A stretch of 20,642 nt of DNA. Source: a virus. A program made the translations under genes and the position numbers. Shown here piece after piece: positions 2 through 5,909 of the stretch. The stretch covers positions 84,088-104,729 of the IMG/VR virus record IMGVR_UViG_3300022227_000002, one strand, 5' to 3'. The notes under the pieces are model-generated. The model saw only the letters and a list, made by a program, of their open reading frames with translations, was not told where the DNA came from and did no database searches. Position 1 is the first letter of the stretch. Each line of letters begins with the position of its first letter.

Positions 2-349
2 GTATTGATGAGATAATATTGAAGTATTAGGTGTAAGTATCCTTTCTCCTTTCTTTCCTGCAATAAAAATTAAAAATCCGGAAGAGGCAATTAATCCTAA
101 TCCTACAGTTTTAATAGGTATTGTACTAGCTTTGATTGTATCTATTAATGCAAATGCGGCATGAACATCACCGCCAGGTGAATTAATAATTAAAGTTAGT
201 TTAGGCAATCTAGTAGAAGCAAGATTGCAATTCATAATCCATTGAATACAAGCTCTACAAGAATCTGTATTAATTTCGTCCATTAACAAATAGAGACCAT
301 TTGTTAATAAATTATTTTTTTGTTCTGGTGTTGCTTTGTCTTTAGCCAT
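2..349 (-). CDS. clpP: ClpP-like protease proteolytic subunit (3' end outside the window)
   Basis: Not in the ORF track. ATG at 349 overlaps the glycosyltransferase stop. Translation MAKDKATPEQKNNLLTNGLYLLMDEI...LIINSPGGDVHAAFALIDTI...TVGLGLIASSG...LTPNTSILSHQY has the ClpP motifs INSPGG, catalytic Ser (ASSG) and His (SHQ). Confidence 0.9.
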   Translation of the reverse strand, partial: MAKDKATPEQKNNLLTNGLYLLMDEINTDSCRACIQWIMNCNLASTRLPKLTLIINSPGGDVHAAFALIDTIKASTIPIKTVGLGLIASSGFLIFIAGKKGERILTPNTSILSHQY

Positions 350-1418
350 ATTTTACTACCTCGTATAATGCTTTACCAGAGAAAAATTGATTTTTTAATA
401 TTTCTCTTTGTTTCCATATTAATGGAATATATTTTGTATAATTTTCCATATAGTCGTGTATTTTGTCTATTACTTCTTGTTTGTGTTTACGATAATGTTC
501 TATATCAATTGTCCATTCGCTAGGGTAAGCAAATTCTTTAATTGCCATTTCTTTATAACTTAATCTATTTGGCACCATTGGTATAACATCTAATAGTGCA
601 CCTTCATACCAACTTATACCTAATGTTTCTTGTAAGTTAGCACTAAAGATTAATTTAGATTCTCCTAGTAAATTATGATATTCCACTTTACTCAATGTTT
701 TTTCCTGACATACTATAAAATCATATTCGCTTCCAATAGAATCTTTAAGGTCTTGAAATATGTCTAGTTGCTTTTCAGGTGCAAGTCTATGTGGAAATAA
801 TATTTGTTTTTTCTTTGGCATATTTTTATATTGTTCAAGATTACGTTCCATGTATTCCATAGGCCATCCTACTCTTTTTATTTTTTTATTCGCTTGAGCA
901 TCTAATTTTCTAGTAACTAATTTAATAAATGTATCACTAAACATATCTGTATGAAATTGTGTTGCAAAAAAGTTATGATCAAAAGTTTCATACATACTTT
1001 CTTCTGCCAATCTTACCCAAGGTTTCTTTCCAATTAATCTACCTAAAAAGTCTGCCGGATCATAAGAACCGGCGTGCCACATACCACCTATTTTTATTTT
1101 AACGCCTAATAGTTCTGCCATATATTTTAATTGTATGACTGTAGGATTCCAAGCGTCAGTATATAAGAAGTAGTCACCGTCTTTAACTTCTCCTTTACAA
1201 AACATTTCTCCAATTTTAGCCAATTGATTACTCTTATAAACATTGGTACCACCAAAGTTTAAAAAAGCACCGGGTGTAGTTTTTTGTGGTGTATCGCCTC
1301 CACTTATATTAACTACTTCATTATTAGTATGTCTTTTTAGTTGTTCTGGGAGATGTTTTTTCCACTCCTTTGTGTATCGAGTGTCAACAGCCTCCAAATC
1401 AACAATGTAAATTGTCAT
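342..1418 (-). CDS. GT-B fold (GT4-like) glycosyltransferase resembling GTDC1/QTMAN (DUF3524-type)
   Basis: C-terminal E-x7-E donor-binding motif (QETLGISWYEG), plus FPHRLAPEK and PNRLSYKEM. These resemble, from memory, the GTDC1 motifs WPHRWEHDK / HEFFGVAMLEA / PKDLVYPEI. Confidence 0.8.
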   Translation of the reverse strand: MTIYIVDLEAVDTRYTKEWKKHLPEQLKRHTNNEVVNISGGDTPQKTTPGAFLNFGGTNVYKSNQLAKIGEMFCKGEVKDGDYFLYTDAWNPTVIQLKYMAELLGVKIKIGGMWHAGSYDPADFLGRLIGKKPWVRLAEESMYETFDHNFFATQFHTDMFSDTFIKLVTRKLDAQANKKIKRVGWPMEYMERNLEQYKNMPKKKQILFPHRLAPEKQLDIFQDLKDSIGSEYDFIVCQEKTLSKVEYHNLLGESKLIFSANLQETLGISWYEGALLDVIPMVPNRLSYKEMAIKEFAYPSEWTIDIEHYRKHKQEVIDKIHDYMENYTKYIPLIWKQREILKNQFFSGKALYEVVKYG

Positions 1419-1420
1419 TC

Positions 1421-1795
1421 TTATTCCTTTTCATATACTGCGTGTGATCCATTTTCACCATCTTCAGAAACATCTATTTCAATATTTCTACCAGGATATC
1501 TTTTTTTAATTTGTGCATATAAATCATCTGACATCATTTCACAACTTTTAAAGTCGTTTTGTAATGTACCTTGACTATATAAACTCAAAATCCATCTTTG
1601 AAATTGGATGAATTCGATATCTCTGTCATCGTGAAAAACTTCGATCGCCACTTTAAAATGAAATGTATGTCTATGTGGATGTCCTAAAAATGACACGTCA
1701 TATTCATCTCCAGTTGCTAATTTAGGGTCAGTTAGAGCCGCAGGATACTTATGTATTCCTTCTTTTCTAAATGTTACCCAAATCATTTTTTTCAT
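1421..1795 (-). CDS. Divergent QueD/PTPS-like T-fold protein
   Basis: 124 aa. N-terminal His (EGIH), HPHRH metal-binding motif at the position of QueD HGH, SCEMM at the position of PTAE, and C-terminal VSEDGEN strand. Lacks the canonical CxxxHGH. SD-like AAGGAA upstream. Confidence 0.6.
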   Translation of the reverse strand: MKKMIWVTFRKEGIHKYPAALTDPKLATGDEYDVSFLGHPHRHTFHFKVAIEVFHDDRDIEFIQFQRWILSLYSQGTLQNDFKSCEMMSDDLYAQIKKRYPGRNIEIDVSEDGENGSHAVYEKE

Positions 1796-4253: not shown

Positions 4254-4254
4254 A

Positions 4255-4446
4255 TTAATTAAATCTTTTTGTAAAGTTTTCTATTTCTGTTTTTATTGCA
4301 AGTTTAATTTTTTTAAACTTTTTTAATAATGCTTTTCCTTCCCAACTTCTATCTTCGTCCCTTTCGTTTTCCATTTCTTCGACTTTTCTGTGATAATAAT
4401 CAAACTCGTACTTTAACTTTTTAAGTTTTTTATCTTTCTTCGCCAT
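4255..4446 (-). CDS. Small charged coiled-coil protein (DUF465-like)
   Basis: 63 aa, TAATG overlap with the upstream gene, strong SD (CAGGAGGT), helical hairpin pattern ending LKKFKKIKLAIKTEI. Confidence 0.65.
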   Translation of the reverse strand: MAKKDKKLKKLKYEFDYYHRKVEEMENERDEDRSWEGKALLKKFKKIKLAIKTEIENFTKRFN

Positions 4447-5909
4447 TATACCTCCTGAAATAAATTAGCAAATTGTGTACTTGCGTTAACCGTTTTCTTG
4501 CCAGTCGCCCCCCTTGTTCCTATTACTGTCATAAAATATCTATGAAATTCTTCTATGACTGCGTTTGCTTCATCTCTGTTGCTTGTTGCAAATATTGCCT
4601 CTATAATATCTTTAAAAGCAACTCTATCAAATTGTTCTTGTAATAACATACCTGGATATATTCCTTTATCATATGCTTCATTGGCTTCTTGTACTGCTGT
4701 AATGTGCATCCAAACATTGTGAGCCATTTGTAAAGTGTAACTAAATGAATCCCAACTAGTTTTAGGATCATTTTTCATTTTGTTTAATTCTCCAGGAGAA
4801 TAACAACATACATCATCAAGCATTAATCTTTTACTAACAGGACTATCTCTAAAACTTTTAAATATTTTTTCTTGCAATACACCTTCTTTAAATGTTCTTG
4901 GATCTGGTTTATATTTTTTATCATCTGCACTTGCCTGCATTCTGTATACCCATTTTTTTCTATCTTTTATTTCTATATCAATATAAATTTGACCATTGGC
5001 ACAAGCTAAAAATGGAGAAGCACAATCAAATGTAATCATAAAATTAGGATTGTGATATTTTCTTATAGCTCTTTGTATATCTGTTAATAATACTGCCCAT
5101 TCTAATTTAGATGTTCCTAAGAAGTGTACTACATCATGAACACCTTTTTCTAATAATCCATCAAAACGTAGTGCTACAAGTCTTTTTAATGCAAGATGTA
5201 TGTCACACATATTTTGACCACCAAATGACCAACCATTAAAATGTGTACCAGGATATTTTTTAGGATCACAATAGTCTTTCATTTGTGCATACCAATCGTC
5301 TGCTTGTTGGAAATTTTCACCTTGTAATACATTTAAAAATTTACAATCACCTTTTCTATTTTTCATAAAATAATCATTGTTTATTTTTGTACCATTTACA
5401 GCTTCTTGATAGCTATTAATATTACTAGCTTTAGCACCTTCGGGTGACCTTGAAACCCAAGCTGGAATATCTAATATCATTCCATAGTCCATATTAGCAT
5501 CTAACCACGTTAATACTTGTTCACGTTTCTTTTTTGCTTTAGGACAATTAGGATCTTTCCAATCACCTTCCCATACGCCTTTACCTATTTGGAAACCACC
5601 TGAATCTCCAAGCAACCAATTATTAGCTCTATTTCTATTTCTAATAATGTCATCTCTAACACTAAACTTTTTCATATTCAAATCGGCGTGACCTGCGGAA
5701 TATAAATTCCATTTGTAGTTAAAATACGTATTCTTAGGTTCTAAATAATTTAAACCTTGAATTCCGTGTTCAAACTTTTTAGGAACTCTTTCAGGAAGTA
5801 CATAATCATCTTCGTGTTTTGCCTTTCCTATATCTCTCGCGAAGAAACTACTCATCGCTGGCAAGAATACTGCCCAATCCTTCTGAACTTTTGTTAAGTC
5901 TGTGTTCAA
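4446..5909 (-). CDS. TGT-fold guanine transglycosylase (tRNA-guanine transglycosylase / DpdA-like base-exchange enzyme)
   Basis: Ordered TGT motifs: GDSGGFQ, ILDIP, NVLQG, GWSFGG, HFLG, TFDCASP (nucleophile Asp) and late AHN. TTG start preceded by SD AGGAG (5916-5920). Confidence 0.85.
   Translation of the reverse strand: MNTDLTKVQKDWAVFLPAMSSFFARDIGKAKHEDDYVLPERVPKKFEHGIQGLNYLEPKNTYFNYKWNLYSAGHADLNMKKFSVRDDIIRNRNRANNWLLGDSGGFQIGKGVWEGDWKDPNCPKAKKKREQVLTWLDANMDYGMILDIPAWVSRSPEGAKASNINSYQEAVNGTKINNDYFMKNRKGDCKFLNVLQGENFQQADDWYAQMKDYCDPKKYPGTHFNGWSFGGQNMCDIHLALKRLVALRFDGLLEKGVHDVVHFLGTSKLEWAVLLTDIQRAIRKYHNPNFMITFDCASPFLACANGQIYIDIEIKDRKKWVYRMQASADDKKYKPDPRTFKEGVLQEKIFKSFRDSPVSKRLMLDDVCCYSPGELNKMKNDPKTSWDSFSYTLQMAHNVWMHITAVQEANEAYDKGIYPGMLLQEQFDRVAFKDIIEAIFATSNRDEANAVIEEFHRYFMTVIGTRGATGKKTVNASTQFANLFQEV

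Follow-up and report, generated by a model that had tools for sequence, protein, structure and literature searches.

Which modified base would be made by a run of seven genes set beside the replication genes of an uncultured marine jumbo-type phage? The window (the whole stretch analysed, 20,642 nt; positions 84,088 to 104,729 of IMG/VR record IMGVR_UViG_3300022227_000002) holds DpdA/deazaguanine genes that include a glycosyltransferase (GT) and two sugar-type dehydrogenases. The identical stretch was recovered in independent marine assemblies. The best reading, held with slightly better than even confidence, is a predicted sugar-bearing 7-deazaguanine in phage DNA, with the sugar most plausibly at N2. 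The initial annotation had proposed an undescribed hypermodification. Its sugar step is retained as a prediction, whereas its base half is a pathway already described, that of DpdA and DpdL in the absence of QueC (PMC10516641).

The transglycosylase and its surroundings

The seven contiguous open reading frames are all on the minus strand, together occupy 342-5909 and lie downstream of the genes for PolB (7245-9911), an exonuclease (6707-7258) and a clamp (5920-6645), as first annotated. The intergenic gaps of -26 to +41 nt and the purine-rich motifs upstream of most of the genes are consistent with a single operon. Contigs from the RNA libraries of three studies give shallow coverage of parts of the locus, from which no inference on transcription is drawn. 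The replication block is a hot spot for accessory genes. Profile and structure searches bore out the families originally named, i.e., the TGT fold, Gfo, Zn-MDR and GT-B.

The gene at 4446-5909 (minus strand, TTG start) encodes a DpdA-like guanine transglycosylase of 487 aa, belonging to the PA5oct-type long subfamily. This protein, the GT and a 174-aa protein have no match in Pfam, PHROGs or NCBIfam, and sequence and profile searches of the PDB were blank, so that a comparison of folds was needed. The AF2 model of the DpdA-like protein (pLDDT 93.9) predicts the (beta/alpha)8 fold of the TGTs, which make up all of the top 50 Foldseek matches. The model (VIA) scores Z 18.2 against the archaeosine TGT 1iq8 and 15.7 against the DpdA 7ui4; the values for TGTs and DpdA are 18.2, 17.4, 16.4 and 15.7, with the next unrelated barrel at 11.5. 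The catalytic and base-binding residues are all present and are invariant in 97 homologs: the DSGG Asp (D102-S-G-G; D102, S103 and G105), a second Asp (D147), the HxxG motif (H262-x-x-G265) and the nucleophile Asp (D295). By motif, D102, D147 and D295 presumably correspond to D102, D156 and D280 of the Z. mobilis TGT. The subfamily comparison covered DpdA2 and DpdA3; within it, HHalign gave 97.8% against DpdA2, over 188 core columns only and at 17% identity, and 41.8% against DpdA3. No KVP40-type DpdA gene was matched by the protein in tblastn. At 90% clustering, it has 7,630 homologs.

Glycosylated 7-deazaguanine occurs in nucleic acid as manQ and galQ of animal tRNA, where the cyclopentenediol of queuosine bears the sugar; the gene set here cannot make that group. 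A transglycosylase and GT acting on tRNA to yield a base of that kind would agree with the best structural matches of the DpdA-like protein, which are tRNA enzymes, though tRNA TGT structures predominate in the PDB. The protein is related to the DNA-acting DpdA2, and QueC was found neither on this contig, itself only about 30% complete, nor in the complete genomes of PA5oct, ACP17, Phosso, BCSR5 and BUCT-ZZ01. The locus adjoins polymerase and clamp genes, and the DNA of the cultured phage PA5oct, which encodes all six enzyme genes, contains a modified G of uncharacterised identity (PMC12191111). Given these neighbours and that modified G, DNA is the likely target, as had been proposed, and a tRNA product is very improbable. 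Paride and its relatives, also in culture, likewise encode orthologs of the six enzymes. PA5oct has been proposed for therapy.

Proposed supply and insertion of the base

FolE, QueD and QueE would make 7-carboxy-7-deazaguanine (CDG) from GTP by established chemistry, and the genes for all three are present in this phage alongside dpdA and dpdL. QueD, the CPH4 synthase of the second step (12357-12851, minus strand; PF01242 E 1.7e-21, TIGR03367 E 2.3e-11), is located 6.4 kb upstream, close to the 6.5 kb first estimated for a conventional queD. A search of the contig for folE, queE and queC found the first two, which group with annotated phage enzymes, but no queC. FolE (C1:80423-81100) and QueE (C1:79552-80415) are outside the window, about 3-5 kb downstream and beyond its position 1.

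The gene at 1421-1795 (minus strand, 124 aa) was initially annotated as a QueD paralog. The T-fold paralogy holds, but by motif and homology the protein is the already named DpdL, a proposed CDG decarboxylase, and this role is a proposal for the founding member in phiST also (PMC10516641). Its LGHPHRHTF fits the published LxxxHRHxF signature, which replaces the CxxxHGH of QueD, and L37, H41, R42, H43 and F45 are invariant among 45 homologs. The protein is 57% identical to ACP17 gp125 (E 3e-37) and 33% identical to phiST gp040 (E 5e-7), which was equated with CGPG_00067 by motif and position. Without QueC, DpdL would convert CDG, probably to 7-deazaguanine, which the DpdA-like enzyme would then exchange for guanine in newly made phage DNA, after replication.

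The dDG system of phiST (FolE, QueD, QueE, DpdL and DpdA3; Cui et al. 2023, PMC10516641) shares FolE, QueD and QueE without QueC, the LxxxHRHxF DpdL and a TGT-fold insertase. In phiST the short DpdA3 has a kinase and a MazG-like protein as neighbours and there is no GT; this locus instead has the 487-aa DpdA, a GT4 enzyme, the 174-aa partner and optional dehydrogenases. The DpdA2 systems of the KVP40/nt-1 type (dPreQ0, dG+ and dPreQ1; PMC6884629) share a long TGT-fold DpdA beside folE/queE, and its catalytic core, but use QueC/QueF and are without the DpdL and GT found here.

The 174-aa alpha/beta protein (1837-2361, minus strand) has no assigned function. The ATG at 2361 is the start in the Atlas record; the mechanical reading frame opens at 2481, within the MDR gene. 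The gene is a near-constant member of the module, present in 52/52 loci seeded with the TGT (those with at least 5.5 kb of downstream sequence), 57/58 seeded with the MDR and 66/73 seeded with a second GT subtype. Orthologs occur in ACP17, between folE and dpdA, and in PA5oct (gp121). It had been suspected of being a QueE-like relic, an idea abandoned here: the Fe-S cysteine motif of a QueE radical SAM enzyme is lacking, no cysteines are conserved and HHalign gave 0.8% against 23 phage QueE. A TGT fragment was likewise rejected. The Atlas returns unnamed clusters or weak leads resembling barrels or glycoside hydrolases, all below 0.9 and on a poor model. A possible distant homolog, no more than a lead (E 0.006), immediately precedes the GT in X1 and BCSR5.

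This protein, nearly as constant as DpdL, may be taken to point to a new non-sugar deazaguanine, made with its help or that of the dehydrogenases, the GT-B enzyme being accessory or transferring something else. DpdA and DpdL of ACP17 alone produced no dDG in E. coli (PMC10516641), which would suit such a reading but equally the sugar-bearing base of the best one. The non-sugar reading is nonetheless improbable, as the GT retains its NDP-sugar binding residues and its neighbours are NDP-sugar enzymes. The 63-aa helical protein (4255-4446, minus strand), which matches no family, is probably a passenger. First listed as a coiled-coil part of the system, its gene is patchy across loci, occurring in 25/52 of the TGT-seeded, 2/58 of the MDR-seeded and 0/73 of the second-GT-subtype-seeded ones.

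The glycosyltransferase and the predicted sugar

The gene at 342-1418 (minus strand) encodes a GT-B, GT4-like retaining glycosyltransferase of 358 aa, as judged from predicted fold and motifs. Its AF2 model (pLDDT 91.4) has the two Rossmann domains of GT-B, and its homologs, of which there are at least 8,000 at 90% clustering, match PF00534/PF13692. R211, K216 and E272 are invariant, giving the E-x7-E motif (E264-x7-E272) and the Arg/Lys pyrophosphate contacts of GT4 enzymes. The GT4 enzyme would move a sugar from an NDP-sugar onto the inserted base, a step suggested by gene linkage.

Post-replicative sugar transfer by GT-B enzymes to a pre-modified DNA base is known from the T4 alpha- and beta-glucosyltransferases (glucosyl-hmC) and base J. 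These act on the hydroxymethyl of a pyrimidine, whereas the predicted acceptor here is a purine analogue. To our knowledge, the sugar-bearing DNA bases so far are all pyrimidines. A profile search against solved DNA GTs gave no sequence similarity to the GT, complete relatives have no second thymidylate-synthase paralog (PF00303 <=1 per genome), and a TET/JBP search had no match anywhere, with the controls likewise blank.

Several points stand against the best reading. Plain 7-deazaguanine has no hydroxyl handle, the restriction resistance of PA5oct is accounted for by a sugar-free deazaguanine, and small-molecule GT4 enzymes resemble the GT model more closely (Z 22-26) than does the T4 alpha-glucosyltransferase (1y6f, Z 18.6). 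The structural matches of the model include 6kih (Z 25.7, rmsd 3.1 over 318 residues) and BshA (Z 24.9). In huimycin and the dapiramicins, the sugar is carried on the 2-amino group (N2) of a 7-deazapurine (PMC7439116). Should the base be glycosylated, this analogy would give exocyclic N2 about half of the expectation. Attachment through a C7 handle, for which DpdL or the 174-aa protein would be responsible, is a tentative second possibility, and a direct C7 C-glycoside is unlikely.

The resemblance to small-molecule enzymes, the cyanobacterial tetrahydrobiopterin glucosyltransferase 5zer (Z 20.1) among them, would also suit a GT that glycosylates a free molecule of the pathway (a pterin intermediate or free deazapurine) for storage, detoxification or a huimycin-like metabolite, with plain dDG or CDG in the DNA. 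This accounts for the same gene linkage, and HuiG does glycosylate a free deazapurine (PMC7439116). The huimycin/dapiramicin pathway, as described there, shares FolE/QueD/QueE-type genes and a GT, but yields a free bacterial metabolite, includes QueC and a methyltransferase and has no DpdA. The distribution of the GT argues the other way and leaves a free acceptor unlikely: every GT-bearing complete genome has a DpdA-like gene, the GT usually adjoins dpdA or dpdL rather than folE/queD, and phages with DpdL and DpdA3 make the same intermediates without a GT.

The TGT-like, GT and DpdL genes, whose co-occurrence had been put forward as a check, occur together across unrelated phage lineages. DpdA, DpdL, the GT and the 174-aa gene are found together in 52/52 TGT-seeded loci, and where the distant second GT subtype served as seed, DpdA was present in 73/73 loci and DpdL in 72/73; most loci represent one syntenic phage lineage. 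The GT profile matches 7/15 complete phage genomes, in each of them beside deazaguanine genes. In PA5oct, ACP17, X1, Phosso, BCSR5 and BUCT-ZZ01 the GT adjoins dpdL or lies within about 3 kb of it and is mostly adjacent to dpdA; in PhiXhv-12 it follows Gat-QueC, with a DpdA-like gene elsewhere in the genome. The three PA5oct products are gp166 (DpdL), gp167 (GT) and gp168 (DpdA). PIG-L deacetylases flank the GT in BCSR5 and PhiXhv-12. The GT is absent from phiST, RHph_I1_18, Ahp1, D479, Bakedbeans, KVP40, Moby and pf16, i.e., five DpdL phages without the long DpdA (four with DpdA3) and three ordinary QueC/DpdA2 phages. Between uvsX and the helicase, Moby has folE-queC-dpdA2-queE where X1 and ACP17 have folE, GT, dpdA2, dpdL and queE, so that the GT and DpdL occupy the place of QueC. 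The link spans two DpdA subfamilies, and the genome-wide distribution suggests a GT dedicated to deazaguanine clusters. Matches to the GT and to DpdL among genome contigs are almost all in MAG contigs, and those examined resemble binned phage DNA.

Candidate donor-tailoring enzymes

The gene at 3255-4253 (minus strand, 332 aa; PF01408 E 1.7e-9) encodes a Gfo/Idh/MocA NAD(P) oxidoreductase, an optional candidate for sugar tailoring, in which GxGxxG, EKP(80-82) and D159-x3-H163, the motifs of the family, are conserved across 76 homologs. The equally optional Zn-dependent MDR dehydrogenase (2366-3280, minus strand, 304 aa; GroES domain, PF08240 E 4.5e-11) keeps its zinc ligands and NAD-binding glycines across 77 homologs (C39, H60, E61, E114 and G145-S-G-F, GSGFL) and lacks the four-cysteine structural zinc lobe. 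The MDR gene is always paired with the Gfo gene, and the pair is seen only with the GT subtype of this locus (W), never with subtype Z. A GalE-like SDR lies directly 3' of the GT in 62/71 loci of subtype Z and 1/101 of subtype W. All 4/4 independent contrasts agree with a switch of donor enzyme by GT subtype, at p 0.125 with too few pairs and seed-biased sampling. The dehydrogenases may oxidise and then re-reduce the NDP-sugar donor, forming a two-enzyme epimerase that substitutes for a GalE-like enzyme, a role falling slightly short of an even prospect.

Tailoring of the sugar by both dehydrogenases was part of the original proposal. The families stand but an obligate role does not, as many phages with the same GT are without the pair. 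A 19-row clade of the same GT subtype lacks it, as do the cultured phages other than PA5oct; that it was not found on long contigs of further clades is weak evidence because these contigs are only 10-53% complete. A cyclitol, also suggested as the attached group, is not specially indicated. The notion that the pair occurs nowhere beyond the closest clade and is lacking in PA5oct proved wrong: PA5oct has both (Gfo, gp123, E 3e-34; MDR, gp122, 41% identity), 26 kb away and with the NAD glycine motif and zinc ligands lost.

The Gfo-MDR-174-aa genes are apart from dpdA in PA5oct and in loci L212 and L264. This separation would fit auxiliary genes for virion or host-surface sugars (the GT, Gfo and MDR), kept in the conserved replication block by descent while the DNA carries dDG. 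Jumbo phages and cyanophages have GT/NDP-sugar clusters that are believed to modify surface polysaccharide (PMC7824862), and the accessory-gene hot spot would accommodate them. For the set as a whole this is rather unlikely, a shade more so than a free acceptor: the GT link is kept in unrelated phages, other gene orders and other DpdA subfamilies, and the GT without deazaguanine genes was not seen in the genomes examined. A surface role is likelier for Gfo and MDR alone, where it is a serious possibility somewhat below even, than for the GT.

Under the reading of a glycosylated base in DNA, the sugar would serve to shield the deazaguanine against restriction enzymes and defences that recognise it. 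Eight deazaguanines are listed for phage DNA, none with a sugar (PMC10516641), and no glycosylated deazaguanine in DNA was found in the literature searched, though an earlier in-silico mention may exist. More broadly, it is an evenly balanced proposition that these phages form a widespread family with a glycosylated DNA purine, a 7-deazaguanine with its sugar at N2 (in the minor groove) or C7. The sugar would vary through exchange of GT subtypes along with the enzymes that tailor the donor (GalE, UDP-sugar dehydrogenase, deacetylase, or Gfo and MDR), and in BUCT-ZZ01 a second GT may extend it. With so common a gene family, aquatic viral DNA could be rich in the base. The identity of the nucleoside in these phages would settle the role of DpdL too. 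If true, the finding would establish a DNA base of a new class as well as a GT acting on a DNA purine, which is a possible labelling tool.

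Genes of the cluster and their setting

The window takes up the final 20.6 kb of a virus contig (G000 C1; 104.7 kb, 32% GC) whose genes for capsid, baseplate and replication are those of a large myovirus. The stretch is present unchanged in several marine metagenomes. By the DpdA-like gene, the PA5oct-like jumbo phages are the closest cultured relatives (33% identity). The seven ORFs of the initial annotation (342-5909, minus strand) exist, tightly packed downstream of the polymerase, exonuclease and clamp, and the conventional QueD placed upstream was confirmed at 6.4 kb. Beyond the view of that annotation, folE and queE were both found 3-4.5 kb past the window start in the same orientation. 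The contig, which is about 30% complete, yielded no QueC.

The 487-aa protein is without any match in profile libraries. Against its structural model (pLDDT 93.9), TGT and DpdA structures score well above other barrels, and its homologs show no variation in the catalytic motifs of TGTs. As it has only the core in common with DpdA2 and is less like DpdA3, it is treated, on comparison with these two subfamilies, as a putative separate long form of DpdA. The 124-aa protein is assigned as DpdL by its motif and its homology to phiST and ACP17 proteins. The 358-aa protein is a GT-B fold glycosyltransferase (GT), closest to retaining GT4s, with intact NDP-sugar residues. For both dehydrogenases, Gfo and MDR, the catalytic motifs are conserved among homologs from marine and freshwater sources. 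The 63-aa gene occurs at some loci and is missing from others. The 174-aa protein is conserved across loci; it had been read as a possible QueE relic, and was rejected as QueE.

Outside the window (contig stretch L005:12891-13391 = G000 C1:82891-83391), the DNA between GT and folE also encodes a phosphoribosyltransferase (PF00156, E 2e-10) and a HIT-like protein. The former recurs near queE in PA5oct and BUCT-ZZ01, and a role in salvaging the guanine that DpdA releases is possible. A carbon-nitrogen hydrolase (PF00795, E 1.3e-8) sits between queD and the polymerase (10482-12328), as does a gene that by eye resembles GMP reductase and is common in the closest clade; the two might bear on guanine pools or deazapurine chemistry. 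Also by eye, a 124-aa ORF at 10099-10473 resembles ribosomal protein bL12 (L7/L12), and a ClpP-like gene at 2-349, mostly restricted to the closest clade, has an 8-nt overlap with the GT stop. Shadow ORFs on the two strands arise from Ala/Gln/Pro repeats (19784-20018) within a 915-aa protein (17778-20525). By eye, the region separating the tail genes from the replication block (stretch L004, partly L003; G000 C1 about 54800-70200) contains many consecutive ORFs of radical-SAM-like and short SDR-like type.

Linkage within the lineage

Loci were collected by three seeds: the DpdA-like protein (80 loci), MDR and a second GT subtype (Z), about 21% identical to that of the window (W). Where DpdA-seeded loci had enough downstream DNA, the 174-aa gene, DpdL and GT were present in 52/52, and Gfo and MDR in 20/52. 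Well-covered MDR-seeded loci (n=58) carry Gfo in 58, DpdL in 56 and GT in 55. Those seeded with subtype Z (n=73) carry DpdA in 73 and DpdL in 72, with Gfo and MDR each in 0/73. A GalE-like epimerase comes next after subtype Z in 62/71 loci, and after subtype W in 1/101. Genes for UDP-sugar dehydrogenase, DegT and cytidylyltransferase recur nearby.

The DpdA tree requires at least 5 changes of GT subtype and at least 6 of Gfo/MDR. The two shift together in 4/4 independent contrasts, too few for significance (p 0.125). Given the seed-based sampling, a rule by which subtype W entails MDR is circular, and it fails in one 19-row clade; what escapes the circularity is that no examined locus with subtype Z had MDR.

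In PA5oct, dpdA, GT and dpdL are consecutive, and the Gfo, MDR and 174-aa orthologs (gp123-121, L179:3224-5501) form a second block 26 kb from dpdA. Both dehydrogenases look degenerate, Gfo lacking GxGxxG and MDR the zinc Cys and His; they are present in 11/11 PA5oct-like records and may be pseudoenzymes. PA5oct DNA has been reported to resist cutting at five G-containing restriction sites, the base identity not being given (PMC12191111).

Linkage across phage lineages

Linkage across lineages is the stronger test. The GT profile matches 7 of 15 complete phage genomes, six of which carry DpdL, FolE and a long DpdA, with no convincing QueC match. No such GT was found in the DpdL phages with DpdA3 (phiST, RHph_I1_18, Ahp1, D479), in Bakedbeans, or in the QueC/DpdA2 phages KVP40, Moby and pf16. 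The cluster occupies the same uvsX-to-helicase site in Moby, X1 and ACP17, holding QueC in Moby and GT with DpdL in X1 and ACP17. In Synechococcus phage BUCT-ZZ01 (L096:4364-8521), dpdA2 and dpdL are bracketed by two GT4 genes that differ from each other, and a disaccharide is possible.

Just upstream of GT, X1 and BCSR5 (L089:3846-5458, L095:8267-10105) share three genes (PAPS-reductase-like, PIG-L-like deacetylase, small conserved gene), possibly for further sugar decoration. DpdL phages with DpdA3 have MazG-like, dNMP-kinase or dUTPase-like neighbours (L088:6418-8580, L092:6980-9409, L094:7001-9097), a hint that full replacement of dG may proceed at the nucleotide level. A 383-aa protein of Vibrio phage Bakedbeans (L093:6221-7372) has DpdL as its C-terminal part.

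The seventh GT-positive genome, Xanthomonas phage PhiXhv-12, gave no DpdL match. Its GT lies downstream of a GlmS-annotated gene that is a Gat-QueC, in the order Gat-QueC, PIG-L deacetylase, GT homolog, Gfo (L097:4738-8824); its 568-aa DpdA-like gene lies elsewhere (L300:4566-6272). The locus is a candidate for a DpdL-free G+/preQ0 system that bears an amino sugar.

Proposed mechanism and acceptor site

Gene content, folds, catalytic residues and co-occurrence are matters of observation. By established chemistry, FolE, QueD and QueE would convert GTP to 7-carboxy-7-deazaguanine (CDG), and DpdA would carry out base exchange. DpdL would decarboxylate, DNA would be the target of exchange, GT would act on the inserted base, and Gfo and MDR would tailor the sugar donor. 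The chief alternative has GT acting on a free deazapurine or pterin, and linkage of the genes cannot tell the two readings apart. A sugar-bearing 7-deazaguanine in DNA is the best reading, held with a modest lean in its favour.

The acceptor problem is real because 7-deazaguanine (DG) is without a hydroxyl. In a G:C pair, N2 points into the minor groove and retains one free hydrogen. N2 would be the first choice of acceptor because of this position, because the DpdL and Gat-QueC settings both have it, and because there is natural precedent. In huimycin and the dapiramicins, the 2-amino group of a 7-deazapurine is glycosylated (PMC7439116). In phiST, Cui et al. found dDG, the nucleoside of DG, and they put DpdL forward as a decarboxylase, never mentioning glycosylation; ACP17 DpdA and DpdL yielded no dDG in E. 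coli (PMC10516641). No paper on glycosylated deazaguanine in DNA was found, in literature coverage incomplete by two sources.

The system, initially proposed as a candidate undescribed one, is real and widespread. It is a variant of an already known type and includes one step so far undescribed, which would be highly interesting if borne out.
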